Below, one piece after another: positions 27,409 to 62,071 of a stretch of 64,000 nt of DNA (within the stretch, counting starts at the first letter, position 1; every line of letters begins with the position of its first letter). The position numbers and the translations under genes are program-made. The notes below the pieces were generated by a model. It worked only from the letters and a program-made list of their open reading frames with translations. It was not told the DNA's origin and searched no databases. Origin of the DNA: a virus; the IMG/VR virus record IMGVR_UViG_3300045988_082835; one strand, written 5' to 3'.

Positions 27409-27642
27409 TTAAAGGCCGAGCATTTTCTTAAAGTCAGCAAACTCCTTGTCATAATTTAATCCTCTTTGGGATAAAAGATTTCTAGCTATTTGTTCAATCT
27501 CTTCGGTTTTATTCTATTTGGCAAGATCTAACAAATTAGCTCCAAACGGATTATTCCCCATCTAACTTTCTAATATATTTAGAGTTAGCTATTGAGGATT
27601 CTATCCATTCCTAATCATTTGAATTAACTACATTGGATTCAT
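27409..27642 (-). CDS. hypothetical small protein (about 77 aa, about 6 TAG)
   Basis: Frame reconstructed manually; TAAGGAG ribosome-binding site; MNPMQLIQMIRNGQNPQQL... Confidence 0.35.
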
Positions 27643-28657: not shown

Positions 28658-29285
<628 letters not shown>

Positions 29286-29390: not shown

Positions 29391-30071
29391 TATTTATAAA
29401 GAATAAGATTGTTCTTGGGATAATATAGATAGCATATTTTGAGCTAGATCGTCTGGTAAGTTTTCCGCTGAATAAGAGATATTTTCTATCTCTTCTCTTG
29501 ATGTAGAGCGTCTAATCCAAGTTAATAAATGATTACATAAAGTTGTATGATAGAGTTTATGCTATATGACAGATTGAGAAATATTCTTAATTTCCTCTGC
29601 TGTAAACATACGACAAAGGCTTTTATCCGCATGATAAGGATAAACAGAAGCTCCCTACTAAACAGCTGCCAATGCTGTTGTTAAGTTAATCTAGTCTGTT
29701 TCTTGTAAAGAGAAATGTTCTATTCCCTTTGAAGTGGTAATATCCATTCCTTCTATTATAGCTTTATTACAATAACTAGAGATTTGCTTTTCTTTTAATA
29801 GTTTTATATTTGGGAGTCTATCTTGCTCTATTTCTTCCTCCGTGCGTTCCATCGCCTAGCCGTCCACTAGCTTGTATCGGGGAATTCCATCGTTGATATA
29901 GATAGACTCTGGAAAATAGTTACCCTAAGCATGGTAATATTTATCGCCAAATCCGCTGTCAATCTCCGTGCCCCAGTCGGTGGAGACAAAGGCGGAGCTA
30001 TTGACGGCGGTAATGCGGCCTTGCTCGTCTGTCTGAACATAGACGATGTATGGTTCGAGTGTGTAGTCCAT
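29391..30071 (-). CDS. tail fibre assembly / chaperone-like protein (GC-rich N-terminal part, AT-rich C-terminal part with TAG)
   Basis: GAGGTGA ribosome-binding site; MDYTLEPYIVYVQTDEQGRITAVNSS...; frame reconstructed manually. Confidence 0.4.
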
Positions 30072-30083
30072 GGTGGTCACCTC

Positions 30084-31073
30084 TTATAGTTCGGCGGAAA
30101 GTGTAATCTTTGCCGTGCTGTTATTACTTCGTAAGAGCTGGGTAACTTGATTTGCTGGGCACCCAGACAATCCGTTGATTATCATGCTCACTGCGTTTGA
30201 GGACATCTGCTGGACGAAGAAATTTGATGCACCCGCTTCTACATTTATAAGTTGCCCATCGCCTCTCAGAAGCCAATTCCCTGCGGATGCGCATGTCGGC
30301 ATAATCCGCATCGTAGTAGGTGTTGGTATTGTGATTTCCGCCTCTGTTTCCGAAAAGAACGAACCAACCCCAATATTTGAAAACAATGTGTTGAATCCAG
30401 GCAAAACCAGTAGATACCTCTGGCACCGAGCCAGCTCCCCGGCATAATCCGGCGTCTCAAAGAGCTTCCAATTACTCTCCTCGTCCTGGTAAGCGAGGGT
30501 TTGGGTGGAGCCAAGCTCCAGCTTAGATGCTTGCAGGAGTACGCTGTTGCCTGCCGAGACGATAGCGCTACAAAAAAACCTGTCCGCCGTATTGTCATAA
30601 TTAAACTGGACAAATCCAAACGGTTTGATAATGTTTATGATATTTGTCCACGCACTCGGTTTTTCTTCCGGGGCAGACGTGGACATCGATAGCAGGTCTC
30701 CATCAACCAGTCCAGAGAGGCAAACTGTTTCTCCCAATAGACGGTCATTTGGAATGCCCAAAAATTGAATAAATTCCAGATTCCCTGTTGTAGCAGTTAA
30801 AGTGATTCCATCGCTGCCCAGGATTGCAGTGCCTTCCCCACTCAGCTTCCATCTGTCTATGAATCCCCCTGAACCGGCATGGCTCGTCTCCCCCCTCTGG
30901 TTAATGGGGAACTGCCCACCGCCCTGCTGGGAGCCGCCGCCCACGAAGTACCAGTTGTCCAGAAGGTTCCGGTTCGGTCGCCCACCGATGTTGCGGAGAG
31001 TTTTTTGGTAGTTGCTTAGGTTAGATAACTCCTTATTTGCTCCTTTAATCTAACCCTATAAAATACAATTCAT
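30084..31073 (-). CDS. tail fibre / receptor-binding protein with a compositionally foreign, TAG-free C-terminal 300 aa
   Basis: ORF 30084-30944 is 286 aa with no TAG and high GC. It extends in frame upstream across two TAGs in AT-rich sequence to the ATG MNCIL(Q)G(Q)IKGANKEL with an AAAGGAG ribosome-binding site. Confidence 0.5.
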
Positions 31074-31398: not shown

Positions 31399-33162
31399 TT
31401 GCCTAAATGTATTTTAGCTGAATAGGGTGGAAAAGGTGGAGGTTCTCTTTCTCTTGTAAAAATTGAAGTAACCACTCCCCCTACTAAAACGAGCTATCTT
31501 GCTGGTGATACTTTTAATCCCGCGGGAATGGTAGTCACCGCATCTTACGGCATGGACGGCGTTATTGTAACAACAGCAGAAGTAACTGGGTATCAAGTTA
31601 CTCCAAACCCTTTAACTGATGGGGTTACTAAAGTAACAATTACTTACTCTGAATTAGGAGAAACTTGTTAGACCACTCAAGACATTACTGTTATTCATAA
31701 ACTTCTTAGTATTTAGGTTACTACTAACCCAACTAAGACAACTTATGAATATGGAGACACTCTCCAAACAACAGGAATGGTAGTTACAGCAAGTTATTCT
31801 AATAGTACATCATCCGCGGTTACCGGGTATAGTTGCTCTCCAACGTCATTAACTGCGGTTGGCACCTAGAAAATTACTGTTTCTTACACAGAAAATGGAG
31901 TAACTCAGTCTGCTTCTTTCAATGTTACTGTTGAAAGAAAATCGGCGCCGAAACCAACATGGAAGAATAATCTTACCTATACTGGTAGTAGCCAATCAGT
32001 AAGTGGTGCTTCCTATTGGAATAACTTTAATACCACTTATATGACGATTGGCGGGACAACTTCCGCGACTAACGCTGGAACCTATACTGCTACTTTCACA
32101 CTAAATAGTAATTATAGATGGGCCGATGGAACTACATCAAATCTTGATGTAAATTGGACTATTAATAAAGCTGCTGGAAGTTTAACAGTAAATCCGACTT
32201 CTGTAGCTCTTGATGGAGATAACTATAGTGCCGGTGTAAAGGTTACCATTACTCGTTCTGGAGATGGAGCTATTAGTTATAGTCCAACTAGCGTTTCTGG
32301 TTTAACTTTGTCTTTAAGTGGAAATGTTCTTACAATTAAAGGTGATGGCAGTACGGCTATTTCTTCTACTACTATTACTATTAAAGTCGCAGAGGGAACC
32401 AACTATATAGCCCCAGGAAATAAGACTGTTACTGTAACAGCTAGCTATTGGGAGTGGGGTTCTGAAACTACTGTTGGTGATGCTAAATGGTGGGCTGGAT
32501 TAAAAACATGGGCTGCTAAAGCGTCATCTGGAGAGCGAAAAAATTGTGTAGGCAAGAAGAAACTCGTAAGTCTTTCTTCTGCGGTCCTCGGGGGAAATGC
32601 TGCTACTATGATTTGTATAGGTGCAGATTAGGATGGTACTGGTACTTTAACTTTCTAGACTGCGGGAACCTTGCCAAACGATCTTTAGTTTGGTGATAAT
32701 GCAATCTGGATTGGTTCAGATGCTAGAAAGCAATGTCAAAATTTCTATAACTACTGTAGTGCTAAAGCATCCATTAAAACCGTAAGTAAAGGTACTTGTC
32801 CTAATTATGGAAGCAGAAATGAAAGCGTAACTTATAATAATGAAACTGTATGGTTGCCCTCGGAAAGAGAAATGGGATTAGATTCTTATTCTCCTATCTC
32901 CACTTCTAATAGTACAACTTCTAAAGCCGAGTGTACTAAAGGGTATAACGCACCCTATAGTTATTACACAAGTAATAGTAAACGTGTTAAATATTATATG
33001 AATGCCAATGGTACGTTAACGAGTAACACGAACTGGTATTGGGAACGGTCCCGTTACTACAACAACTCGAGCAACGTTTGCCTTGTCGACTACGATGGGT
33101 CTGCGAACGACAACAACTACTACTACAGCAACGGGCTCGCGCCGGCTTTCGTTATCGGATAA
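31399..33162 (+). CDS. DGR target protein: Ig-like (Big_2) repeats with a C-terminal C-type-lectin-like variable region (TTG start; several TAG)
   Basis: AGGAGG ribosome-binding site. ORFs 32041 and 32854 are in the same frame. The C-terminus ...WYWERSRYYNNSSNVCLVDYDGSANDNNYYYSNGLAPAFVIG is encoded by the variable repeat. Confidence 0.7.
33046..33145 (+). repeat. DGR variable repeat (VR)
   Basis: 100 bp matching the template repeat at 33769-33868 with 10 mismatches. Every mismatch falls at a template-repeat adenine, in AAC codons. Confidence 0.8.
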
Positions 33163-33182
33163 CACAATAAAATAACAATTCG

Positions 33183-33206
33183 GGACAGTTAAGATTAAAT
33201 TGTCCA
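33183..33206 (+). other. hairpin downstream of the VR (candidate DGR target-recognition stem-loop)
   Basis: ggacagtt-aagattaa-attgtcc. Confidence 0.35.
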
Positions 33207-33243
33207 ACTAAAATTTTATATATTCAAGTGAGGGAGATTTTAA

Positions 33244-33738
33244 ATGTCTGTAAAAGTAAAAGATAGACACATATCAAAGCAAGATTGTCTTTATAAAGCA
33301 CGCGACTTAATGGGATATATTTTAGTCTTGACTCGTCCTAGAGAATATGATAAGGATGGAAAACAAATTTGCAAGCCTGGACTGCTTGGAGAGGGTCAAC
33401 CTCTTCAAGCGTTCGGGTATGATATAATTAAGTGCGGAAAGGGCTTACATGCTTGTTGTTATGAGGCGTGTAAGATAAATTTGAAAGACAAAGAAACCCT
33501 TGCAAAGAGAAATGACTATCATAATAAAGCACTAGAATATTGTGATAGTATATTTCGACAAATCGACCTATGTATTTATTAGTATGCTCAGAACAGCAAA
33601 AAGAAGAGACGCTCTTTTGAACATCTAGCTAGATTGACAAAGAGAGTAAAAGAGTCAATCCAAGATAGAAAGAATAGAGATAAACTTATAACAGAGCATA
33701 GATATTCAGCTCCTAAAAGATATAGGAGAGGTCGATAA
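33244..33738 (+). CDS. avd: DGR accessory variability determinant (Avd)-like protein with a highly basic tail (one TAG)
   Basis: Lies between the target gene and the template repeat. ORF 33244-33582 continues in frame to ...KKKRRSFEHLARLTKRVKE...RYRRGR. Confidence 0.55.
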
Positions 33739-33768
33739 TATTTTTCTGCGGTTAAGTTCTGTATCTTT

Positions 33769-33868
33769 CGGTCCCGTAACTACAACAACTCGAACAACGT
33801 TTGCAATGTCAACAACGATGGATCTGCGAACAACAACAACTACAACAACAGCAACGGGCTCGCGCCGG
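33769..33868 (+). repeat. DGR template repeat (TR)
   Basis: Adenine-rich (AAC-rich) donor sequence. The overlapping ORF 33801-34022 is spurious. Confidence 0.8.
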
Positions 33869-34179
33869 ATTAGATGGAGCTATCATGTTGCGAGTTAAGC
33901 TGCGGAGCAGCGCAAACGAGCAACGCCTAAATAGTACCCCAGAGTATATTATTATCCATCTAATTAAGGTTTACTCTGGATTGCACTCACTTTATGTGGG
34001 GAAGAGATTGAGAGACCATTAAAGAGCTTTGCTCTACAACTATCGAATAATATACTATAGGTAGATCTGCCTTTTCATCTAAGGAGAACTTAACCATTTC
34101 ACTGAAAAAGTGGATAAAGTAAGACTGTAGACGTGGAGCTCGAGTAGCTACCACTATAGCTACATGATAAGGAGAAAGT

Positions 34180-35397
34180 ATGTCTGAAATAAAACAAGAT
34201 ACTGCTTTCGAGTGTTTTTGTAGTTTTGACGCTATGTATGATGCGTCTTATAAGGTATGTCGAAACGTTCGATGGAAAGATAGTACAATTAATTTTGAAG
34301 AGAATAGGATAGAAACAATTTTAAAAACAGAAGCTGACCTGCGAGCGTGTGAATACGAACAGCTTGTGTTTAGTTGTTTTTCGATAATCGAACGAGGCAA
34401 GCCAAGAGACATAAGAGCGTGTCATATCAACGACAGATTGGTGCAAAATGCATTATGTGAACAAGTTTTGCTACCAGAATTAACTCCTAGATTTATCTAT
34501 GATAATTGTGCAACCCTAAAAGGAAAGGGAATAGACTTCGCTCTGAAAAGGGTTAAGAAACATCTTCAATAGGCTCATAAAGAGTATGGGTTAGGAAAAG
34601 ATTTTTATGGATTAAGAATTGATATACAAAAATATTTTGATTCTATTGACCATGAATCTTTAAAGAAAGCAGCTAAACGACTAATAAAAGATAAACTTGT
34701 TTATTAGTTATGTTGTTACTTAATAGATACATTTTCTTTTAAGCTAACAAAAGATACTTCACCTATGCCAAATAAAATATATTACACAAGTAAACGACAC
34801 AAGTATGAAAGAGTTAATGTTACTCATTTCTAGCCTGGTCGTAAGTATTATGAATATGAAAGAAAGAGCCTAGGATTAGGAAGTCAAACATCACAATTAT
34901 TCGCATTGCTAGCATTGAACGAAATTGACCACTTCATAAAAGAAGAGTTACATATTAAGTATTATGGTCGTTATATGGATGATTTATACTTACTCCATAA
35001 TGACAGTAAATACTTGGCCGAATGTGAGAGACAAATAGAAATTCGCTTAAATAAACAAGGATTAAAGATGAATAAGAAGAAAACTACTATCACTAGAATT
35101 TCTCCTATTCACGAAGACGGTAAACGTCATGCTCCTTTTAAATATTTAAAGTGGAATTTTCATCTCACAGAAACTAATCATATAATACAACTTCCTTTCA
35201 AGAAAAAAGTAGCTCATTAGTGCAGAAAATTAAAGAAAATGCAAGCTTTATGGTTAGCTAATAAAATTTCAACTGAAGAAGTTTAGAAATCTTATTAGGG
35301 TTGGAGAGCACATATTTCTAAAGGAACTTGCTTTTATATAATTCAGGACATGGACAATTATTTTCGTTCATTATTCAAAGGAGTTGAAATAAAGTAA
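34180..35397 (+). CDS. DGR reverse transcriptase (about 5 in-frame TAG)
   Basis: ORFs 34180 and 34906 are in the same frame. RT motifs FYGLRIDIQKYFDSIDH and YGRYMDDLYLL (YxDD) are present. AAGGAGAAAG ribosome-binding site. Confidence 0.75.
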
Positions 35398-36059
35398 TGT
35401 ATATTCTATTAAATAGAGAGAATGTAGTAGTTGATATTCTTTCAGAAGCACGTTACATTAAACTGCAATCCTCAAACGGTATTGTCGTTGCCTGCGAGGA
35501 AGAAGAGGGAACTGGGGTTATCGGCTCAGACAGTGATACTCATTACACTCTAGTCAAAGCCGATGTATTAAATCAACCTAATGCTGTTACAGTATTAGAG
35601 TTAGAAACAATTCCATCAGATGTCATTCCTAACTATTCAAAATATAATCAAGAAGATGGTACTTTCATCGCTGATTTAAATTAGGCAAAATATGATAAAC
35701 AAGAGGAAAACAAGAAACTATTCGCAGAGTATCTTGCTACCCACCCATTAACTTGGGTTGATGGAAAAGAATATGGAATTACGTAGGAGGACCAGTCTGA
35801 GATTAGTTTGAATCTCAATCAATATTAGGTGGCGGTAGCTGCTGAAGTAGAAAATCCTACGCTTGAGTGGCACGCTAGACACGAAGAGTGCGTACCATGG
35901 ACTTTAGAGCAATTATCTGCTCTAAGTTTAGCTATTTCTAATGCGGTATATCAGAAATATCATTTAATGCAAGAATATAAAACCTAGATATTTGGAGCTA
36001 ATTCGATAGATGAATTGAAAGCTATTGAGTTGAATTATGAAGATACCGACAGTGAGTAA
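35397..36059 (+). CDS. tail fibre assembly-like protein (about 220 aa, about 5 TAG)
   Basis: ORF 35397-35684 continues in frame. The C-terminal region TLEWHARHEECVPWTLEQLSALSLAISNAVYQKY is of tail-fibre-chaperone type. Confidence 0.4.
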
Positions 36060-36495
36060 AAATATAATTCTATTCGTAGTGGGAGGAACTCTATATTACA
36101 GTATAGAGTTCCTCTATAAAACTTTTATTAGCCTTGGAGTTTGTCATTGGTCTATGTTTTTGCTAGGTGGCTTATGCTTTCTATTAATTGGACTAATGAA
36201 TGAGAATATTCTTTGGGAAGAATCTATCTTAACTCAAGGAGTAAAAGGATCTTTAATTATAACTGCTTTAGAATTAATTTTTGGATTAGTTTTAAATATA
36301 AGACTAGGTTTAGGTATTTGGGATTATTCTAACATTCCACTTAACTTTATGGGGCAGATTTGCTTGCCCTTCTCTATTGCATGGTTCTTCTTGAGCCTTT
36401 TAGCAATAGTGTTAGATGATTACCTTAGATGGAAATGGTTTGGAGAAGAAAAACCGCATTATCACTTATACAGTAGACCTCCTTGCGAGGAATAA
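36037..36495 (+). CDS. hypothetical four-helix membrane protein (152 aa)
   Basis: ORF track. Confidence 0.45.
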   Translation: MKIPTVSKNIILFVVGGTLYYSIEFLYKTFISLGVCHWSMFLLGGLCFLLIGLMNENILWEESILTQGVKGSLIITALELIFGLVLNIRLGLGIWDYSNIPLNFMGQICLPFSIAWFFLSLLAIVLDDYLRWKWFGEEKPHYHLYSRPPCEE

Positions 36496-36545
36496 AAAAA
36501 ATAGGGAGAACCTTAATTAAAAGGTTCTCCCTATTTTTTTTTATT
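36493..36545. terminator. bidirectional terminator
   Basis: atagggagaacctt-aattaa-aaggttctccctat flanked by an A8 run and a T9 run. Confidence 0.7.
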
Positions 36546-37323
36546 TTACATCAATAATAACAATAGCAATATCGCTTTCTGGTTTATCTTTTGTGTAGAA
36601 AGTGATTCCAGATCCTACAGTTGCATCAGCATGATCAATTTTACTATATTCCTCTAAATTAGAAGTATAAGTAATGATAGGTGGCACATTTCCCGCTTTT
36701 CCGCAAGTTAAAGCAGTATTAGAGTATGTCTATGTATACATATCTCCGTTCAATACCCATGATGCCGCGGCAAGAGTGGTTGTATAAGCTACAGATGTGC
36801 TACCAGTAATTTGGTTATCTGTTTCTGACTTGCTATATACATCCAAATTAGTTCTGGCTCGCGCGGCTGTCGTGCCTCCAGTTCCTCCAACCTAGATTGG
36901 AAGTGTACCAAATGTAGGTGCACCCGCAGTAATCGCGTATAAAGCACCAGCACCTTGTAAACCAGCCACACCATTTTCCGCATTTCCGATTACTAAACTG
37001 CCGGCTGCAATTTCAATCATTTTTAATGCTTCTGTTCCATTTCCTACTAGCAAAGCATTAACAGTTAATGTATCATGTCCAGTTCCACCCTACGCTACAG
37101 TAGCAGTCATATTTTTAAGAAAAATGTCGTCAATATCAATTTCAGTAACATTATTCTTTAAAACTTGAGCAGCATAGGCATTGACCTGTAGACGTCCGCC
37201 CTCTATATTACTTACATCAATAAATAAATTTCCTGTGTCCTCGCAGAAATAGGCGTATCCTTCATGAAGAGGTACATCATTAAGATCCTCTTCTGCGCCT
37301 TTAAAAATCTTAAATAAAGCCAT
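36541..37323 (-). CDS. tail fibre-like protein (260 aa, three TAG)
   Basis: ORF 37090-37323 (AAGGAGG ribosome-binding site) continues to ...VGGTGGTTAARARTNLDVYSKSE..., matching the GGTGATTAAGAR(A/T)NLG motif of phage fibres. Confidence 0.5.
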
Positions 37324-49755: not shown

Positions 49756-49780
49756 AATAGGGGAGGAAATCTCCCCTATT
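49756..49780 (-). terminator. hairpin after the tape measure gene (terminator or attenuator)
   Basis: aataggggag-gaaat-ctcccctatt. Confidence 0.4.
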
Positions 49781-52700
49781 ATTCTTTTCTTCTATTCGCC
49801 CATTGAGTAGCATCATCCGCCAAACTACGAATAGCATCTTGAATTTCATCAGAAGATGTCGCATTGGGGAATTCAACTCGTTCAATATTTATATTTGGCT
49901 AAACCACATTATCTGTCGGCGCAATCTAGGTATTAGTTCCCAATCTAGATGCCATAATACTAGAAATAGATAGTGCGTTCCCGTCAAGAGTTTTCTCAAT
50001 AGAGGCTATAAAACTAGGTCCAAAGGCTCTCATAGCAGAGACCGCCGCCAAGATATTTTTCGTATCCTCTTGATTTAAAACTAACTCTTTTTCATGTAAG
50101 AAAGCTAATTTAGCATTATCAAATTCTCCAGTATATCCTCCAGTATCGAAGCCACTTATCTAACTTTCTTTTAGCCATCCATAAGCGGAATTATTGGACT
50201 GTACATGGATTGGATAAGGTCTACCCTTAGCTATGTTTGTTATTCTAACCTTTTTACCTGGACCGCGTCTACCAGCAGGATCAGTGCCATAAGAATCATG
50301 ATAGTAAGTTCCACCAGTATAAATAACTTCATCTCCTACTTCGGGGATTCCATTACCTCCTCCAGTTCCACTACTGGAAGATCCACTACCACTATTGCCT
50401 GAGCTACCTTTATCAGTATCAGAAGATTGACTTGAATCAGAAGAAGGCAAGTCATCTTTATCTATACTTCCTGCGCTTTCTATTGTGTTACCAGCAGCTC
50501 TAGCGGCTTCTTCAAGCGCTCTTATATATTCTCTGACTGAATCGGCCATATCTAAATACTCTTGACTTAAATCTTGAATAGTGCTTATCTATTCTAACAT
50601 CTAAGTAACGGCATTTGATCCAGCCTCAGAGCACAAATCAGTAGAAGTTGAAACATCGTCGATATAATCTTTTAAATCATCGAGACTTGTTCCAGTCTAA
50701 TCGGCTACTCCAGAAACAGTAGTTTGATAATCTTCCATCGCTCCGCTAGCTTCATCCATTGCATTAGATAAAAACTCTTCAAAGTTACCAGCATTAGCGG
50801 TCATATTGGCTAAGTCTTTCGCAAATACATTATCAAATAGGTCAATAAGTTTTGTATTACTTCCTACTATATCTTGAATCTACTCGTTATCTGATAGTAA
50901 CAAATCAATAATGCTAGAGCCAGAGTTAGCTATAATATCTTGAATTTCTTGACTTGTAATTCCAGTTAGGTCACTTACCTCGTCTCCCGCAACAATAGCC
51001 ATATCAATTAAAGCTTTATTGCCGGCTTCGGTCATATCCTTAATAGCGATCTATTTTTCGCTCTCTAAGTCCTTAACCTTCTGCGTATAATAAGAATAAA
51101 TTTCTTGCGCGCGAGCAGATCTTTCTTCATCAGTCAAGGTCATATCAGAATAGATTTCTTTTATCTTATCTTGACACTCTTGCCAAGTAGAAATAATCTC
51201 TCCTGTAACATCCTCTACCTGTTGCTTTGCTATATTATACCATTCGTTCTCCGCATCAAGTAAATTCTGCTCTGCGTCAGCTATCTGGCTCGCATCTGCG
51301 GTGTATTGATAATTCCAGTTACCTTGACTATCTCTCACTAGTCTAAGTTGATTTTTCGCATTTTGAGCATCTTCAAGTGCCATCTAAGCCTAAAGAACAT
51401 TATACTTAGCTTCGAGAATTTCTAAATCGTATTCAGATAAGGTATTGTTCTCTCTACGTATATCAATTTCCTCTTGTAGCTATTTTAACTAATCTTTCAT
51501 CTTAGAGTTAGTAGCCTTATCAATATCCTGTTGTAGTTTATTATACCAAGAAGATACCTCATACGCTTCATTTACTTTATCTAAATATCTATCCTCTTGT
51601 TCGATATAATGATCGAATTTGTCTTGTAGTAGATCTAATCCTACTCCACCAGAAACAGCCTATCCAAATTCATATACTGCTCTTTCAATAGCTTGAGTAT
51701 ACATCTCCTAAGCAGTCTCCATAGCAGCTTGCGCGGAACTTAACATAGCCTCTTGTGCTTCATTAAATTCTTCTAGTAGAGCATCTCTATTAGCTTTTAA
51801 ACCATCATATGCAGGATCGGTTTCATCTCCGCCTAATGCATCTAATGCAGCTTGAGCTTCCAATAGTTCTTGACGGATTCCGTCATACCATTGTTTATTC
51901 AGCTATGCATTGGCGACCTAAGCCTTCATAGTTTCTTCGCTTACTTCTTGAAGCTATTCAAATCCTTCTTCGGTCTTATATGTAACTCCCTAAAGAGCAT
52001 ATAATTCTTTGATGAGCCCTAGAACAGATTCATTATGATCAAGCTAATCAGTAAAAGCAGCAAATCTTTCTGACGCGGCATCTAATGCATCTGGTAGCAT
52101 TTCTTCAAGACCTTCTACCCAATCAAGCAAAGCCTCTGCGGTAGAAATCATTTTACCTTGTAAGTCAGATAACTTACTTACAATCTCATCAATATTAGTC
52201 GCATCTGTGGCATTAGCTAATTCTTCCTGATAACTTTTAAGGGCTTCTTCATAGCTCTTGATGATTTCAATGTTCTCGTTCATACTGTTTTTATCAATAC
52301 GAGCGACTTCCATTCCATGAGTTAGCTCATCACCAAAAGATTCTGCTATTTGTCTTGTTAGCTCATTAACCGCATCTTTAGCATCTTTTATATCTATCGC
52401 AACTTCAAGTTTATATTCAATCTAATTTAATCTATTATCTGCAATATTTCTTTCTAGCTCTTCTTGCTCATCTTTTACATCTTGAATCTTGTCAAGAGTT
52501 TCTTCATATTGAGCTAAAGCGTCCTAACGAGCCTAGAATAATTCATCAGCAACTTCTTTTTGTAATTGCCAACTATCATATTCTGCCTATCTAGCCTCCT
52601 ATTCATCTTTAGTAAGACTGCTAAACATTAATAAGAAAGCGTTGTAATCGGTTAAGAAGTTATTATTATAATCATCAACAATAGATTGAAGAACGTCTTG

Positions 52701-55700
52701 ATAACCTTCAATTTCTCCATTTTCATCAAAAGTAAGAGAATTGTTGAATAATCCTTGAAGGTCTGATCTATCTTTCTCAAGATAGGTCTCAGCCTCATCA
52801 AGCATCTTATTATAATTAGCTTGCTGTTTTTCTAACTCTTGAAGCTCTTTCTAATAAGCCTATAATTTCTTCGCTCCATATGCTCTATCTATATTATTAC
52901 CAATATCATCTAATAAATTATTCTAATTCTCAATCTCACGAGTTATTTCATGGTATCTATCTTCTATATCTTCAAGAGTTTTTTCATCTTCGGCATCATA
53001 TTTTGTACCTTCGTTATCTCCGCCAGAATCTTTATTTCTAATATTGTCTGTTGCTATTCTATTCGGATCTAATGCTCCATCAGGATCAAATGCAAATGGC
53101 TCCTAACCATAATCAAAAATACCATTCTATCCAGATCCCGTACCCTAAGAAGATAAATATGAACCAGCTTCTTTTAGAGCATTAGTAAAATTACCAATAG
53201 CATCTCCGCCCTCGCCGGAAATTTTTAATCCTAGAGTGGGAAGCTCAAAAGGAAGATCCGCTTTGCCAGCTAGCCAATCATCTATCTATAATTTTCCCCA
53301 TGATTTTACATATGGAGTAAAACCTAAATCATATTCAAAATTAGAAATTAAATCTCCTAGTGCTGTTAGAACAGCCCCAGCCGCCTATGAAGTTGAGCTA
53401 ATTGTATTAGCACTCTCGGACATAGTAGAATTAATAACGGCTCCAGCGATACTAGCATCAGTGGACATTGCTTGCATTAAAGCATCGGCGCTTGTATCTA
53501 GTCCATTTGCTAGCGTTACTCCCTAATCAAGAACACCCTAGAGAATCCTTTTATAAGATTCGTTATTAGTCTATTCTAGTCCTACGAGCTATTGTCCAAT
53601 ACTTGATACCATTGCCTAAAATTCTGTCGCAGTAGTATCGAAATTATTATCAATGGTAAAATCTATCGCTCCAAAGCTATCAGCATAGTTTAATAAGTAA
53701 TCGTAATTATCTACTAAACTATTTACAATTCCCATCATGTCTTGGGCATCGCTCACTTGTTTTTCCCAAGTATTTAAATTAGATATATCAGACATGGTTC
53801 TGGCATATTCTTCCTCAGAAATTGTAGTTTGATCTACTCCATCTTTGAGTTCCCAAACTCCGTCTGTATTTTTTGTAATATTCTAATTTAATTTAGACTA
53901 AGCCGTAATTAATGCTTTCGTGGCAGCGATTGTTCCCTCATAGTAATCATCCATATTGATGGTTCCAGATTTAAACTTTTTATTTAAATCTATCAGTCCA
54001 TCCCCTATAGACCCGGTTGCAGCGACCAAAGTAGCTTCATATAAATCAGTTTCTTCTATATTATCGTCAATTTCTTCGTTTAATCTATGAAAGCCTGCAT
54101 TTATATTACTTAATCTTTTATTAATCGTATCAAAATATTCTTGGGCAGATATTGCCCCCTCCTGATACGCTTTCGCATTATCACTAAGGGCCTATGTTCT
54201 CTCTTTAAACAATTCTACATCAGTTTCACTTGTAAACGTATAATCATTTATTGCATTTGAATCACTGGCTCGCGATACTAATTCATCCCACATATTAATA
54301 TAATTCTAGAGATAATCAGTATTTACCCCATATTTTTCTTTCATAGATTCTATTGTAGCATCAAGAATTTGCTCTTCTTGTCGTTCAGAATCTAAAAATG
54401 TCTAAAGAGACTAATTTGTTAGTTTATACGCATCTCCAACTTTAACAATATACTAAGCATATCTTTCATCTGCATTAATGAGTTCTTGAACTTGATCCAT
54501 GGTTAGATAGCCTTCTTGATCCTTATATGACTATAAGGCAGATTCAAGAGCACTCTAACTATTATTTAATTCTTCCAATATAGATTTTAAGTCGTCTATT
54601 CCCTTTACATTTATATTTATTTCATTAATTTTATAATTATCTAAAAATTCCTATAATTCTTCAACCGCATCAAAATTATCTATATTGACATCCATAAGGA
54701 TTTCCCAATCCTCATTTGATAGAGAATCAAAATCAAAATCACTAAATTTACTTTCTACTTTTTCCTTTGCTTCATCTACTCTGCTATCTACAAAAGTTAA
54801 AAACTCATCTACGCTGACTCCAGCTAACATTAATTCATTTTTAATGGATTCTGTTATCAAACCAGAGGCTGCACTAATATCACTACTAGCCAAAGTGCTA
54901 TAAAGCTAAGTAGAAATCTATTTAACTGATTGGTTATCTAAAATTGGTTTTAATATAACCTCTTCATATTCACTTTGACTGCCATAAAGATTTTTACGAA
55001 TAAGAGATAACTGCTCCTGCATTGAAGCTATCATTTCTGGATTATACTCAATAACCCCGTCAGTAACAGATTTAATATATGCAGCATAATCATCTTCTGC
55101 TTGCTATATAGCTTCAGAATTGTCAGTTACCCACTGTGCCGTAATCTATTCATTTTGAGTAACCCAATCTTGATACTCTACTAAGTAATCACGATAGGCA
55201 TCAGAATTTTTATCAAGGCCCTAAGTAATACTATTAAACCAAGTGTCTGCATCTACGTACTAATCTTTATAAGTATATCTATTCTATTCAAGTACAAATT
55301 GAGCATTTGGATCATTTAAATCCATGCTCTATTCTAACTCTTTAAACCAGTCCTAGTCTCCATTGTATTCATTCCAACTTCTCCACTAGGTTAAATCTGG
55401 TCCTCCTGCCAAACTCTTAGTAGATTTATCATAATTCTCTTCGATAGTTTTTGCCTAGGCTTTTTGCGCTTCTTCTGTTAACTTCTCTTGTAACTCAACC
55501 TATCTCTACAAAGAAGATTCTGCCTATTTAAGTTTTTCTAATTCTTCTTGTTCGACTATACTTAAAGAATCCTAATTATTTAATTCTTCTATTCTATCTT
55601 TCGTTGTCTATAATTCAGAATTTAAAGATTCTAATGCAGATTTCTAATCCTCATAAGCCTAGGTAGCACTAGATATTTTTTCTCTAGCCTCTTCTTCCGT

Positions 55701-58478
55701 AACAATAATGAGAGAAATAACATTAACAAGTAAGGTTACTCCCAAAGTGATTAACCCAATAAGTGGTAAAGCAGTTGAGATAGCCGCACCAACAGTAGTA
55801 ATACCAGCAGCCGCAGTTTTAGCTGAAGCTCCAACTGTTAAATACGATATTGCAGTTAAACTATTTTGTAATGCCTGCTTTTTAAACAAGGTAGAGATTG
55901 TTGGTAATAACATTCCAAAGTTAGTAAGAATAACTGTAAAATCTTCAACAGTAAACTCTCCCTCTTTCACAGAATTTGTAAAAGTAGAGAACATGGAATT
56001 AATACTTGTCATTCCCATTGTAACTTGCGATAAAGTGGTTCCTACTTTAACCAATGTCTCAGCCCAGTCTAAAGTAGCATATCTGTTATTCTTTAACCCC
56101 TCACTAATTTCTTTTGTTTTCTACTGTAATAATTCTAATCCCTATCTAAAAGCCTCAGCACTAATTTCATTATTCTTAAAAGCTGCTACAAGACCACTTA
56201 GATCATTTTTAAATTTAACAGAACCATCACCTAAAGAAGTAATAACTCTATTTAATGCAGCAACGTCTGATTCTGCCCCTTTTAATGCTTCCTAAAACTA
56301 CTAAGAGGTAGTAAGATATTCTATTATCTCCTAATTTGTTGCATCTTGAGCACCTTCAAAAAGATTTAGGCTTCTTACTAAATTAATAGTTTCTTGAGAG
56401 ATTTCATTGGTTCCAGAACCAACTAATTTCTATACTTGCTAAAACTTAGAAAGACTTACGCTCGCCACTTTTAATTTGTCAATTAAACTCTAAAGGGCTT
56501 GCTAATTTGTCTTTGAACTATAGAGAATTTCTGTTTCTATGTCCTCATAAAAAGAAAATTTATTTTCATCTTCTAACACAAGCGCCGATAGTAGATTATC
56601 CTTCCATTTTTTATTGGGAACTAAACGCTCAGACAAACTATTTGTATAAGCTGTAATAAGTTCATCTGATTTGCTAACCTACTACCCAATTAAATTAACC
56701 TATGTCTATAAAACCTTTACTCTATCTAAATCTTGTTGTAAAATACCAGCCTAGCGCTCAGATAGTTGTGTGGCCGCAGCGGACGCTTCTCCTTCAAGCT
56801 AAACAATCTAAGCTTGAGTATTTACCATCTATCCCTAAATAGTATTATCAAGTGCGGATTTCGCGATAATATCAGCCATCTATGCGGCTTCAGTTCTCAA
56901 AGTTTGCGCTCTATCCTTTTCTCTCTATCCGATAATACCAAGATTAGAAGCAATATCTCTCATTCCTTGCGCAATCTTATCACCAAAAGCCTTATTCATC
57001 AGTAAAGCAGTTGTTGCTAAAACGCCAGACATTCCGCCTAAACCATCAATAATATCAGCAGTTGTACTTAAAATAGGACTAAGAACATCATCTACCCCAA
57101 TATAAAAATCAGGATTTATTAAACTATCATAAATATCTTCCGCGGATGCTCTTACTCTATCTCTTGCCGCCTCCCAAGATTCAGCATAAATATCTGCTTG
57201 TTCTTGTAGAGATCCTTCTGCTCCATAAGAACTCTCCAAATTTTCCTAGAAGAAATCCCAGTTATCCATAAGAGCAATAAGACGAGTATATTGACGTACT
57301 CCAGCTACAGTCTGTGCTAATGCAATCTATTGATCATTAGATAGAGTTTCCCATTTCTCTCCCATTTCATCTAATAAAGTATCCATAGTCTTGATTTCTC
57401 CATTAACGTCAAAGATGTTAATTCCAACTTTATCAAGAGCCTAAGAATATTTATTTAGAGTAGTTCCATCATCAAGTGTTTCTCCAAGATTTAAGCCCTG
57501 AATACGTGCAAATAATGTTCTAAATGCAGTACCTACAGTATTCGCAGATTCACGAGTTGTAGCAGTAACAGTAGCAAGCGCAGACGCGGCATACTCATAA
57601 CTCAAACCTACCGTCTCTGCAACTGCGGCAAACTGCTAGATACCTTCTGAAATTTCATCAGAGCTTGATGCAGTATCTGCACCTAAGCGCACCATGACGT
57701 CTGCATAATACTCAAGACTTTTACTTCCATCATAGAAGTTATTCCATACCGCAGTTAACTAGTCAGATGCAGTCTAAGCGCTAACACCCGCGGCGTTTGC
57801 CATTTTTATAGTAGTTTCAGTTCTATCTAAAACTTCCTACTCAGTAAGGCCCTACTGATAGTAAATCAGAGCTGCGTCAGTATAATCTACTGTAGTTGTA
57901 CTCAATGCCTTAGCTGCTTCGTTAGCCTACTTAGCAAAAACAGCCATATCCTCGGCAGAATTTTCAGTAACTATACGAATGTTTGTCAGAGATTCATTTA
58001 AATCTTTTGCATAACCATAAGCTGTCTCTAAAGAGCCAATAAAACCCTATAAAGTGCTTGCTGTAATCTACCAACGAACCGTATTTTTCATTGTAATCCA
58101 CAAATCAGACATTAACTTATTAGTTCTGATTAACGGAGTTTCCGCCGCCATAATAGCCTGAGAAAGATTTAAGAATGTTTCTTGCCCCTAAATTCCCAGT
58201 TTGCTTAGTTGATTATAATAGTCTGTTAAAGTCTTTCCGCTTTTTACTAAACTATCATTAAAAGCAGTCAAATCTAACTTACCTGAATTTCCATTAGTAG
58301 CCATCTAAAGATTACGGCTCAATTCAAGGGCCGCCAAAGATGCCTACTGAAGTTCACTAGAAATAGATGGCTAATTGCCTAATTTCTATAAACTATTTAT
58401 AACTTCATTAACAGAGGTTTTTAGCTGACTCGCGTCAGCGGTAAACCCAATCTAATAGTTTAATCTTTTATTAGCCAC
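49779..58478 (-). CDS. tail tape measure protein (about 2900 codons, dozens of in-frame TAG; GTG start)
   Basis: All seven ORF-track fragments between 50160 and 57239 lie in one frame. Extended coiled coils, a transmembrane block (55659-56054) and a C-terminal motif are all of tape-measure type. Stops between fragments were not all checked. Confidence 0.55.
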
Positions 58479-58588: not shown

Positions 58589-59119
58589 TTAATCTTTTCC
58601 AACCACATCTTTAATTACTGATAGTGTTTCAAGATTTTCACCATTCTTAATCTTTTCTAGCATATCAGTAATATATGTATCAAGACCAGAAGCATTTTTA
58701 TTCATCATCTGAATAATGCCGGCCGCAGAACTATTATATCTTGAAATATCGCTTATAGTATCCTTAACTAAATCCTCAATAAAAGATAGTTCCTCCACCG
58801 GAATAATATCACGAATTGCATCAATTACACCGTTTGTCTCAAGAGTGTCATAGGTTTTTGCGATATTTTCATGCACATCTTCTGGCTCAAAAGTAATTCC
58901 GCCATACCATCTGCATATAGCAATAGCAAAATAGGTCTCCACTCTAACTGGACTAAAACAGCCAGTTGCCTCATCTATTGATAAATCAGTGACAAACATA
59001 ATAAGATTTGTTTTATCAGCAATAGGAAGATAATTAGCCACAGACAAAATCTTATCTGCTCCAACCTTTACTTCTGTATATTTAACTTTAGGCTCAAGCC
59101 CCAAATCTTTAAAAGTCAT
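58589..59119 (-). CDS. tail assembly chaperone (gpG-like) candidate
   Basis: ORF track; lies immediately upstream of the tape measure gene. Confidence 0.4.
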   Translation of the reverse strand: MTFKDLGLEPKVKYTEVKVGADKILSVANYLPIADKTNLIMFVTDLSIDEATGCFSPVRVETYFAIAICRWYGGITFEPEDVHENIAKTYDTLETNGVIDAIRDIIPVEELSFIEDLVKDTISDISRYNSSAAGIIQMMNKNASGLDTYITDMLEKIKNGENLETLSVIKDVVGKD

Positions 59120-59182: not shown

Positions 59183-60619
59183 TTAATATGCGTATTTAGA
59201 TAGTATATTATTATTTAAAGTTGCTGCAATAGTTAATTTATTTATAACTCCATTGACTATATTACTACGGGTGATTGCATCTAATATGTTTGCTCCAGAA
59301 TTGCCATACCACTTATTACCCAGAGCGCCTTCTCCACCAATAGAAACCACTTCATGAGCACTATTTCTAACAATATCATCACAGATATTATTAATAATTC
59401 GCTAGATTGAAAATACTCTACCATTAACTATAATAAACTATCCTAAATGACCCTTCTATGAACTAAACTCACTAGACTGAATCCACTAATTAAAGAAGGA
59501 CGCTGCAACAGAAGCCCGTATATTATTAAACGATTCTTCAAAATCAGCTCCAGTATATCTATGAGCAATCATATTATAAGCAAGATACTTCTCTGGCTAA
59601 CCAGAAAAATATTCTCCAACATTCATACTTGAAGAAGCAGAAATTTTATTCTAAGACATTTTCTTATTTTGCCATCTTGCATTTACATTTGTCCCTATCT
59701 CTATATTAAAAGTCTGATTGCCCTTGGTTACTTGCAAACTAAAGGTATCATTATTAAATATATTTGTAGTACCTTTAGACTTAGAGACATTATTCTATCC
59801 TTTATCAACCCATCGCAATTTTCCACCAGATTGCGCGATTACCTTATCTAATATACTATCCGCGGTATTAACTCCTATTGATATACCCTCTGCAACTATC
59901 GCCTAACTAATCTAATTTCCAATAACCCTTCTAAATATATAAGCAATAGTATTAGCAAAAGAACGAGAGTTTACTGATCCCTATTCACTTAAACGAGTAA
60001 CAGCCCTGTTTAAAGAATCTATTACATCTTTTGCGATATTTATATCTCCTTTGCCAACAGCCATAACATAACTTTGCTATGCCTAATCTATCTAAAAGCT
60101 AGTTCCTATTAGCTATCTTCCAATCTATGTTAAAGCATCAAGAACATTAACATTTATCATATTCGCTTTCGTTAAAGCTGATATAAGTAACCTAAAGAAA
60201 TCATTCACTCTCTATATTTCCGGTGTACCAGTTGATAACAAGTTATTAAAGCTTCCAACCTATTGCAATATAGTATTATAGTTTTCAAAATCTACCTATC
60301 CACCAGCTAATTCAATACCCTCATTAATACCGGCGGCAATCTAATCAAGAGTAGAGTCTAATAGGGTTCCTATCTCTAGATCACTTAGAATCTTTAATCC
60401 ACTGGCTGCGGAAGGCGCTTTTAGCTGCATCTATTCTTGAATTGAGGAGATCTAAGCCTCAATTCCCGCGGTCTATGCTTTATTTACTGCCTATTGATAC
60501 TATGCGCTGAATAAGGTATTCGCTGATTCTACGTCGCCATATTCTCTCAAATGGCTACTGTGATATACAATATAGTTAATAGACCAACGCTAAACATAAT
60601 CATAAATATCAATATCCAT
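59183..60619 (-). CDS. structural protein with extreme TAG density (about 35 TAG in 478 codons)
   Basis: AAGGAG ribosome-binding site; length divisible by 3; MDIDIYDYV(Q)RWSINYIV...; no ORF-track entry at all. Confidence 0.35.
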
Positions 60620-60676: not shown

Positions 60677-62071
60677 TTAAATTCCGTCATCCTCGGTGAC
60701 AGAGACTAACTTATTGCGAATGCTAGTCTTAGCTTTTGCTGCGGTAGATGTAGCAAAGCTAAGTTTGTTGTTAATGGTATAACTCTTTTCAAAATCACCA
60801 TTAATCTTATTAATCTTTGCGGTAATAGGAGTTGCCTGATCTTCGCTGGTAAGAATTACAAGCAATCCTTGAGCCAACTCTTCGCCACTAACGGTTTGAG
60901 TCTTTGTATTACCTTCAATTCTTGGGTCTGTAGAGAAGTATTTCTCATAAGCTGGGTTTGTAGTTACCACATTATATTGGGTGCTATCGCTCTCTACTGG
61001 AATTTGTAGGCTGATCTGAGCAGCTTCTGCGATAGTATCGCCACAGGCCTCAGTATCATAAGCTTTTCCTGTTACATTACCGGTAACATCAAGCTCTGCG
61101 GCTGTAGCACTATTAGATACGAAACTTACAGTCACATCAGCAGCTTCGCTCTCATAAGTGCCTACATTCTCAGAACATGGCTCACGAGTTTCCTCGGTCT
61201 CGCCGCTTTCATCAGTAATTACTTGAATTGCAGCCAATACCTTATGGGTTTGGTCGAACTTGGTGTAATCAGGGAAAGCATCCATTGTAAAGGTGAAGGT
61301 AGAAGGATCTCCGTTAGCTGCCATGCTGAATGTGAAGTTACTCTGAACTTTACAGTTAGGAATGATAAATTCAGCAGGCATATCCACGCCATCGCTCTCA
61401 CGACGGAATAGAGTTGAAGCCTCAAGATAATAGTTACCACCAAACTTATCAGCAGTAATTTCAATCATTTGTGCTCCACCGGTACGTTTTACATAGTAGT
61501 CAACTAAAACAATGGTTCCCGCAGGAAGTACACCCGCATGAGAATAACAAGTTAAAGTTGTTTTGCCATCTTCTGTGTAACTTACAGAAACAGGAATACA
61601 AGGCTCGGCATTAACCTGACCATCATCACCTAAAACCATCACAAAGATGTCGGCAGAACGATGATACATTTCATTATCATGGTCAGTAAATCCATTCCAG
61701 CAAGCCTTGTCTGGAACAATAATAGTATTGGCAGTCTCAACTTCAATCTGAGAAGTCTGGTGAACATAGATAGGAGCTTCTTTTGTTGCATCAAGTAGGC
61801 CAGCACCAGAAAGAATAGAGAAGCTTTCTGGAGAGAGTAGAGCATCTTCCATTGTAAAGGTTAGAGTACGCTCACCTTCCCAAGCAATCAATCTAGAATA
61901 TCCACGTCCGCCCTGCGCATATACTGTTGTTGCAGCACCCTCAAGAGTAGAGGTTCTTAAAGTGTCGAAATATAAAACTGGTTCATTTTTGTAGAACTTA
62001 CGATTACCAAGGGTTTGATAACTCTTCGCACGAAGCACTACATCGCAAATCTCACGAATACCAAAACGCAT
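60677..62071 (-). CDS. major tail protein candidate (464 aa, no TAG)
   Basis: ORF track; TTAAGGAGG ribosome-binding site. Lies after three connector-sized genes and before the chaperone and tape measure genes. Higher GC than its neighbours. Confidence 0.45.
   Translation of the reverse strand: MRFGIREICDVVLRAKSYQTLGNRKFYKNEPVLYFDTLRTSTLEGAATTVYAQGGRGYSRLIAWEGERTLTFTMEDALLSPESFSILSGAGLLDATKEAPIYVHQTSQIEVETANTIIVPDKACWNGFTDHDNEMYHRSADIFVMVLGDDGQVNAEPCIPVSVSYTEDGKTTLTCYSHAGVLPAGTIVLVDYYVKRTGGAQMIEITADKFGGNYYLEASTLFRRESDGVDMPAEFIIPNCKVQSNFTFSMAANGDPSTFTFTMDAFPDYTKFDQTHKVLAAIQVITDESGETEETREPCSENVGTYESEAADVTVSFVSNSATAAELDVTGNVTGKAYDTEACGDTIAEAAQISLQIPVESDSTQYNVVTTNPAYEKYFSTDPRIEGNTKTQTVSGEELAQGLLVILTSEDQATPITAKINKINGDFEKSYTINNKLSFATSTAAKAKTSIRNKLVSVTEDDGI

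Follow-up and report, generated by a model that had tools for sequence, protein, structure and literature searches.

The prototype of the diversity-generating retroelements (DGRs) is that of phage BPP-1, and in its ribonucleoprotein (RNP) the template repeat (TR) is followed by a stem-loop; a template:primer duplex and an 11-bp duplex lie 2 nt apart, with two further stem-loops 3′ of them (bioRxiv 10.1101/2023.10.23.563531). In phages of gut Bacillota, DGRs with DUF6273 targets have been described in nd4 and nd12, where the targets are called tentaclins (PMC10743442), and in the Faecalibacterium prophages Lelie, CP11, Roos and Pioen (PMC11792537). Amber codons in DGR reverse transcriptase (RT) genes are known from Zeta crAss-like phages, most of whose DGRs are without an Avd gene (PMC12386605), and no DGR is mentioned for the phAss-1 group in PMC10607447, the single paper found on this group, a negative that does not extend to the two papers citing it. 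The DGR described here is located at positions 31399-35397 of a viral stretch of 64,000 nt (IMG/VR record IMGVR_UViG_3300045988_082835), the whole of which is referred to as the window. We hold it highly probable that the host is a TAG-to-Gln recoded, siphovirus-like phage of gut Clostridia with a genome of ca. 130-150 kb, and that the cassette is its BPP-1-type DGR.

The cassette has the order target-accessory-TR-RT, and is made up of the following features, with open reading frames (ORFs) read under TAG = Gln and VR standing for the variable repeat, IMH for initiation of mutagenic homing:

31399..33162, + strand: DGR target gene, 587 aa, 7 in-frame TAG
32695..33159, + strand: DUF6273 domain of the target, aa 433-586, C-type-lectin-like fold
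33046..33145, + strand: VR, with 10 mismatches only at TR adenines; among relatives, variable at TR-adenine columns
33133..33148, + strand: IMH-like boundary, i.e. the GC-rich VR 3′ end GGGCTCGCGCCGG and the first diverging bases
33244..33738, + strand: accessory gene, divergent Avd, 164 aa, 1 in-frame TAG, isoelectric point 9.7
33769..33868, + strand: TR, non-coding, 35 adenines, 28 of them in the 14 AAC codons of the VR frame
34180..35397, + strand: RT gene, 405 aa, 6 in-frame TAG, RVT_1 E-value 5.5e-16

An earlier note made from the sequence alone had called the DGR complete, and the RT, the accessory protein, the TR, the VR and the GC-rich IMH-like 3′ end were indeed all found. Its reading of the gene order as the BPP-1-type layout was also confirmed, with the same upstream order in the nearest RT relatives: Roseburia phage Shimadzu has target-Avd-TR-RT, and phage nd12 differs by a small additional ORF ahead of the TR and by another target that follows the RT.

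In an ungapped comparison at an offset of 723, the 100-bp VR and TR differed at exactly 10 positions (33055, 33071, 33082, 33083, 33088, 33091, 33099, 33109, 33121 and 33124 in the VR), and the TR base was an adenine at each of them, which upholds on re-alignment the adenine specificity claimed earlier. With 35 adenines per 100 nt of TR, the chance of ten mismatches out of ten on A is about 3e-5. The TR pattern with each A replaced by N had only two matches in the window, the VR and the TR themselves, and none in 100 shuffles. The TR adenines had further been said to sit in AAC codons; this stands for 28 of the 35 adenines, held by 14 AAC codons in the VR frame, and for 7 of the 10 substitutions, and does not for the other three, two of which are in one AAT codon and one of which is a silent third-position change (GGA to GGG). 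The likeness of the two repeats continues to 33148/33871 with an eleventh mismatch at 33146 (C) versus 33869 (A). Since C33146 is fixed in all 18 collected VR copies, where the TR has A, it is taken to mark the IMH/IMH* boundary and not a mutagenised site. The GC-rich GGGCTCGCGCCGG is common to VR and TR, which part from 33146/33869 onward, and this element with the divergence that follows it presumably acts as an IMH/IMH*-like signal.

Scans with the A-masked TR pattern retrieved 2 + 4 viral and 17 metagenome stretches. Of 10 related loci with genes 83-98% identical, 8 had the identical TR. Among eight alleles of the VR in this target gene (VR1), 32 of the 36 TR-adenine columns were variable against 3 of the 67 other columns (Fisher p = 7e-19), the three exceptions all being within the first nine bases of the repeat; hypervariability confined to the TR-adenine positions, as anticipated in the earlier note, is hence observed in eight assembled alleles, not in reads. 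Loci with 99-100% identical 300-nt upstream flanks had VRs only ~80% identical, and genomes with such flanks differed at ~20 adenine positions of the VR. On this ground the element is evidently active in the population. In a wider set of 35 cassettes collected through the accessory protein, the VR at 29 loci agreed with the TR of its own cassette outside the adenines and had 14-25 mismatches, all of them at A; five of the remaining six are truncated upstream of the accessory gene, and the VR of one (L043) has an internal deletion.

The RT carries the motifs LGSQTSQ (LGxxxSQ, motif 4) and YMDD (motif 5), the latter as noted earlier. Its best solved relative was BPP-1 bRT (8ub7_A, E-value 9.5e-15), and the nearest annotated RTs by tblastn (31-35% identity) were those of phage nd12, Roseburia phage Shimadzu and Faecalibacterium phages. 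The motifs, the match to bRT and the presence of the nearest phage RTs in DGR cassettes together argue for membership of the DGR clade. Aligned with the nd12 and Shimadzu RTs (37-39% identity), the RT has a ~35-aa insertion with one TAG right before LGxxxSQ (residues ~185-225; 34690-34860), and another of ~8 aa near residue 313. At the nucleotide level, a search of annotated phages with the whole cassette gave a single match of 96 nt, inside the RT gene.

The accessory protein had no match among family models and no detectable sequence similarity to Avd. Structure models for proteins of the window were made on close homologs, P0001 (92% identical) and P0089 (71% identical). The accessory protein folds as a four-helix bundle; a conserved beta-hairpin of ~20 aa is inserted between its first two helices, and its C-terminal tail is very basic. 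As a small basic four-helix-bundle protein encoded beside the TR it answers to the description of an Avd. Its family is small, with 26 representatives among 1.84 billion clusters. The residues C64, H69, C72, C100 and C110 are near-invariant across the family, and the 164 aa include eight cysteines; the Cys/His cluster could be a metal site, and to our knowledge BPP-1 Avd has not been described with one.

The G+C content of the window is 34.7%. Reading TAG as a sense codon doubles the long-ORF coverage, one example being a 2841-aa ORF with 98 in-frame TAGs (49779-58304), and the stop codons of all 44 listed window genes are TAA or TGA, none TAG. At the window TAG sites of the cassette genes, the codon in ten close relatives is TAG in 69 cases, CAA/CAG in 35 and another one in 15, CAA/CAG thus making up 35 of the 50 non-TAG cases; in the reverse direction, the TAG sites of the relatives are CAA/CAG in the window in 12 of 24 cases. 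The accessory-gene TAG aligns with Q in most homologs. From these alignments, the reading of TAG as Gln (genetic code 15) is well supported. The nd12/Shimadzu alignment was also tried as a test of the RT TAG codons, proved too divergent to inform, and was replaced by the closely related loci.

The counts of one and six in-frame TAGs reported earlier for Avd and RT are right, and the 28 full-length RTs detected in the wider set all contain between 1 and 11. The occurrence of TAG in all 28 RTs, together with TAG/CAA/CAG exchange among relatives, implies long residence in TAG-recoded genomes, and bears out the claim that the retroelement is native to the recoded genome. As the three DGR proteins contain TAG, they would be made only when amber suppression is available. 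TAG accounts for 12-50% of the Gln codons in the three DGR genes; the share is 50-79% for most tail genes and 0-2% for the capsid-like ORF, NrdD and the polymerase. The use of TAG is uneven inside the late module: the capsid-like ORF 60677-62071(-) (464 aa) and a 176-aa neighbour (58589-59119(-)) have no TAG, and in adjacent structural genes TAG represents 42-75% of Gln codons, with 25 TAGs in 59183-60619 and 98 in 49779-58304.

The replication genes include a DnaE-type polymerase, NrdD and DnaB. A capsid-region protein links the phage to large siphoviruses of Enterococcus, Lactococcus and Bacillus and to the TAG-recoded gut phage phAss-1. Related contigs of 68-149 kb were binned with metagenome-assembled genomes of Eubacterium, Oscillospiraceae and Clostridia, a weak hint at Clostridia as hosts.

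The target gene starts with TTG, 8 nt after AGGAGG, and encodes N-terminal immunoglobulin (Ig)-like Big_3 repeats (Pfam E-value 1e-13) and the C-terminal DUF6273 domain (E-value 5e-10), both beating the cut-off. The VR encodes the last ~33 residues of the domain, i.e. its C-terminal beta-strands, in agreement with the lectin-like C-terminal tip that had been named as the DGR target. About 15^15 x 4^4 = 1.1e20 peptide variants are permitted by the TR at ~19 residues, and the diversified C-terminal face is presumably a ligand- or receptor-binding surface. The part of the lectin fold just 5′ of the VR (32701-33045) is only 75-77% identical among close relatives and partly unalignable, with the target gene outside it 93.6% identical in L001; this divergence points to scaffold diversification or recombination beyond the DGR.

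The description of the target as tail-fibre-like holds in part. No tail-fibre family matched the target itself, for which Big_3, DUF6273 and a PHROG family of unknown function (phrog_37900) were the only matches. The gene does sit within the tail-fibre module, as tail-fibre PHROG families match its neighbours 29394-30071, 30084-31073, 35397-36059 and 36541-37323. Just two ORFs of the window have the N-terminal motif C-I-L-(Q/A)-(G/E)-Q, namely the target (31408, +) and the tail-fibre-family ORF 30084-31073(-) (31067, -), which adjoins the target and is divergently transcribed; a distant target homolog (P0126) begins with MSLKCILQGQ. The motif may be a virion-docking peptide common to the two proteins.

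A second VR is present in relatives, with homology to the same TR beginning at about TR position 20. It belongs to a small stand-alone DUF6273 protein of ~180-200 aa without in-frame TAG, encoded in another genome region far from the tail genes (L013 7059-7673(-), L019 2912-3526(+), L016 11287-11892(-), and further L003, L006, L010, L011, L015, L018, L020 and L021). The L016 gene is ~7 kb from an array of 13 tRNAs. Second VR and TR are on one contig in OFLZ01000046.1, OGNP01000003.1 and IMGVR 091188. In the window, no second VR was found by the TR pattern or by tblastn with the small target of the relatives, and the 133-kb contig of the closest relative has VR1 and TR only.

The targets of BPP-1 and of most phage DGRs are receptor-binding proteins. 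The best-surviving alternative concerns this role: the target might be an Ig-decorated accessory adhesin, Hoc-type or tentaclin-like, for variable and non-essential ligands (mucus glycans or alternative surface structures, for instance), with primary host recognition left to the neighbouring gene products. The distribution of the family matches, in which tail-fibre PHROGs fall on the neighbours and not on the target, would fit such an adhesin, as would the diversification in relatives of a stand-alone DUF6273 protein away from the tail genes, and Ig-bearing DUF6273 targets of DGRs have been read as Hoc-like adhesins (PMC10743442, PMC11792537). The position of the gene inside the tail-fibre module speaks for the contrary, as does the N-terminal motif common to the target and the adjacent tail-fibre-family gene, which suggests common docking on the virion. 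On balance we give the accessory adhesin clearly less than even chances, and keep it as a serious alternative.

It is considerably less likely that the DGR has recently been silenced, in which case its parts would be intact, it would no longer diversify here, and the VR differences of the relatives would record past activity. In favour of silencing, the evidence for this genome comes from assemblies; the window VR is among those closest to the TR, with 10 substitutions against 13-24 in the other VR1 alleles; and the 64-kb window holds no suppressor tRNA. A TR-like VR is, however, equally expected from fresh homing with few misincorporations. The ORFs are all intact under TAG = Gln, the TR and the 300-nt spacer behind it are more constrained than the flanking genes, and the ~20 adenine differences between VRs with 99-100% identical flanks imply very recent homing in the lineage. 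The ends of related contigs at the VR also count against silencing.

These contig ends are within ~250 nt of the accessory gene, i.e. at the VR, in 7 of the 35 cassettes (L026, L027, L037, L044, L046, L047 and L057), and could reflect breaks in the assembly, to which either heterogeneity of the VR or the repetition of TR and VR may have led.

That the repeats are an ordinary duplication or recombination product with an adenine bias by chance can be dismissed almost entirely, as nothing beyond the general occurrence of short repeats in phage genomes favours it, against the ten adenine mismatches out of ten and the population statistic given above, the same A-only rule in at least 18 further VR copies and 29 related cassettes, and the DGR-type RT and Avd-fold protein among the cassette genes that accompany the copies.

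The TR-RT spacer of ~300 nt was 98-99.7% identical in loci with accessory genes ~90% and RT genes ~89% identical, from which the constraint on the spacer exceeds that on coding sequence. With RNAalifold, 28 distinct spacers gave a fold of 52 predicted pairs, with 98% of cells paired. Two-sided changes were present at 25 of the pairs, compared to 9.5±1.8 in shuffles (0/500 reached the observed number) and 4-8 with slid partners. The predicted RNA elements are as follows:

33750..33760, + strand: 11-bp TR-bracketing duplex, 5′ strand GGUUAAGUUCU, perfect complement of 34085-34095
33870..33879, + strand: helix P1, 5′ strand UUAGAUGGAG, directly 3′ of the TR, template strand of a template:primer-type duplex
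33887..33924, + strand: three-part stem-loop just 3′ of the TR, placed like the Avd-binding stem-loop of BPP-1; 13 pairs, 9 compensatory
33925..34062, + strand: variable inserted RNA domain, ~140 nt, closed by GCCUA (33925-33929):UAGGU (34058-34062)
34073..34082, + strand: helix P1, 3′ strand UUUUCAUCUAA, ending at A34082, candidate cis-priming strand and adenosine, followed by invariant GGAG
34085..34095, + strand: TR-bracketing duplex, 3′ strand AGAACUUAACC, exactly 2 nt (GG, 34083-34084) from P1
34100..34125, + strand: short stem-loop (CAC-UGAAAAA-GUG), then an A-rich unpaired stretch; 3/3 pairs of helix 8 covary
34126..34164, + strand: long 3′ stem-loop interrupted by interior loops, its end immediately ahead of the RT ribosome-binding site; helices 9 and 10, 12 pairs, 7 compensatory

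The TR-bracketing duplex is paired in 98% of cells, and compensatory changes in relatives affect 4 of 10 pairs; by its placement it would correspond to the avd:Sp duplex of BPP-1, the 'cPRT Stop'. Helix P1 is 99.6% paired, with compensatory changes in L055 and L057, the two short-spacer relatives from which the inserted RNA domain is missing. A priming role of 34073-34082 with A34082 is suggested by analogy with Sp47-56/A56 of BPP-1. The element 34100-34125 is in the position of the BPP-1 stem-loop with A-minor adenosines, and 34126-34164 is placed like the bRT-binding stem-loop. No Rfam family matched the window at the gathering threshold, and none matched 33700-34250 at E ≤ 1. The hexamer AAGGAG at 34081-34086, which reaches from the last bases of the primer strand across the 2-nt linker into the stop duplex, was invariant in 28/28 distinct spacers, the most divergent included; it resembles a ribosome-binding site, and is more likely part of the RNA core because no start codon follows.

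By analogy with BPP-1, the transcript from ~33740 to 34170 would fold such that the TR loops out between the duplexes 33750-33760:34085-34095 and 33870-33879:34073-34082. The Avd-like protein would bind the stem-loop 33887-33924 and the RT the 3′ stem-loop 34126-34164, and cDNA synthesis, cis-primed from about A34082, would begin at about A33869. The RT would then copy the TR, misincorporate opposite adenines and stop just before the upstream duplex, after which the cDNA would replace the VR with GGGCTCGCGCCGG as the 3′ limit of transfer. The outcome would be up to ~1e20 variants on the C-terminal face of the lectin-fold domain.

Several points weigh against an active BPP-1-type DGR of a TAG-recoded phage. 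The covariation is drawn from about six independent lineages and hence from few independent compensatory events, and what is said of the priming adenosine, of where synthesis starts and stops and of protein-RNA contacts is argued by analogy. For this genome, activity is deduced from the way in which assembled relatives differ, not from reads. No tRNA gene was detected in the 64-kb window and no tRNA with anticodon CTA in any of the related loci retrieved, a search that covered these sequences and therefore says little about the genome as a whole. In BPP-1 a DNA hairpin 3′ of the VR promotes homing; an 8-bp hairpin is present downstream of the VR in the window (33183-33205), is broken in several related lineages, and no hairpin conserved across these lineages was found there. 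We nevertheless retain the reading as a BPP-1-type DGR of a TAG-recoded phage at the high probability stated at the outset.

In the same interval (33183-33205), ~35 nt past the VR stop codon, a motif GGGACAGT-N-AGATTAAA is kept across divergent cassettes, even in those without hairpin potential. Possibly it serves the accessory-TR-RT transcript as a promoter or regulatory element. A promoter scan of the cassette gave 14 consensus matches against 19.8 in shuffles, and no promoter was assigned.

More tentatively, the lineage may represent a co-evolved variant of the DGR RNP, with the additional Avd hairpin and tail, the RNA module of ~140 nt and an activity gated by the genetic code of the phage, a proposal to which we give clearly less than even chances. 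The enlarged Avd, with its hairpin insertion, near-invariant Cys/His cluster and long basic tail, could form with the inserted RNA domain a protein-RNA module absent in BPP-1. If the gating were true, it would restrict mutagenic homing to the late phase of infection, in which packaging can draw on many genome copies; this restriction is offered as a hypothesis and not as a finding.

The locus leaves the general understanding of DGRs unchanged. It provides a clean, population-supported active DGR in the little-studied large TAG-recoded phages of gut Clostridia, and the covariation lends independent support to the RNA architecture seen by cryo-electron microscopy in BPP-1, which a very distant DGR apparently keeps even to the 2-nt gap. 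Standard-code gene calling with family models would miss two of the three proteins, the RT being split by six TAGs and the Avd having no model match, and DGR surveys therefore probably undercount such elements. The enlarged Avd and the RNA insertion also constitute a natural variant that may serve structure-function studies or the engineering of mutagenesis tools based on DGRs.

Upstream of the cassette, an intact serine recombinase gene of the DNA-invertase family (28658-29281(-); phrog_125, E-value 1e-29) is located beside tail-fibre-family genes. It has the catalytic motif YGYARVSS, a non-ATG start and several in-frame TAGs, and its place beside these genes suggests an inversion-based switch of host range adjoining the DGR. 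No convincing flanking inverted repeats were found around the invertase. A 21-nt inverted repeat at 27526-27546 and 35991-36011 (90% complementary, of marginal significance, with no verifiable likeness to known invertase sites) encloses an 8.4-kb block with the invertase, tail-fibre-family genes and the whole DGR cassette.

In L007, L008 and L009, an unrelated sequence of ~1.28 kb stands in place of the window segment 29396-31044, which contains the tail-fibre-family ORFs 29394-30071(-) and 30084-31073(-), between flanks that are 91-95% identical. The exchange is a module swap of putative receptor-binding genes adjoining the DGR target. Downstream, a perfect 21-nt inverted repeat with a 6-nt loop and A and T runs at its flanks (36494-36541) separates the convergent genes 36037-36495(+) and 36541-37323(-), and looks like a bidirectional terminator closing the plus-strand block with the DGR.

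Compared with the BPP-1 prototype (mtd-avd-TR-brt), the cassette has the same gene order, A-specific mismatches mostly in AAC codons, a GC-rich VR/TR 3′ end followed by divergence, and a VR at the C-terminus of a C-type-lectin-fold domain. Its RT is closest to bRT among solved structures, its accessory protein has the Avd fold, and the RNA elements are predicted in the same order, including the 2-nt gap and the 11-bp duplex with a segment upstream of the TR. Differences from BPP-1 are the size of the accessory protein (164 aa versus the 122 residues of the Avd chain 8ub7_B) with its beta-hairpin insertion and basic tail, the spacer of ~300 nt with the inserted domain of ~140 nt, and the location of the upstream duplex strand, which is in the avd-TR intergenic region here and inside avd in BPP-1. 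Furthermore, the RT has 405 aa with the ~35-aa insertion against 328 aa in the bRT chain, the target is DUF6273 with Ig-like repeats instead of Mtd, no hairpin conserved across the related lineages was found 3′ of the VR, and all three genes need TAG read as Gln.

Closer in target type are nd4/nd12, the Faecalibacterium prophages and Shimadzu, which likewise have a DUF6273 lectin-like target with Ig-like domains and the VR at the C-terminal end of the domain. Their Avds, too, are invisible to Pfam, and they have pairs of one large and one small DUF6273 target, as do relatives of the window. These phages, however, have genomes of 30-55 kb read with the standard code; tentaclins carry the lectin domain at the N-terminus and the present target at the C-terminus, and the accessory proteins of the present lineage form a small family of their own with the extra hairpin insertion.

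With the DGRs that Zeta crAss-like phages carry (PMC12386605) the cassette has in common a recoded phage, in-frame TAG in the RT, the GxxxSQ motif and a lectin-type target. Those phages are Crassvirales of Bacteroidota, whereas the present one belongs near the large phAss-1/Enterococcus EF1-like phages of Clostridia, and unlike in most Zeta DGRs the accessory gene is always present. With phAss-1, or 'Phassvirus' (PMC10607447), it has in common a genome of ~133-136 kb, TAG = Gln, recoding centred on virion genes, Clostridia as suggested hosts and a related capsid-region protein (53% identity), although the DNA is only distantly related and gave no nucleotide match to the cassette.

In every testable feature this is a canonical BPP-1-type DGR, and DUF6273 targets, pairs of large and small targets and Avds that escape family models were already known. 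What appears to be new is the host phage group, i.e. large TAG-recoded phAss-1-like phages, together with the small Avd subfamily with the hairpin insertion and the enlarged spacer.

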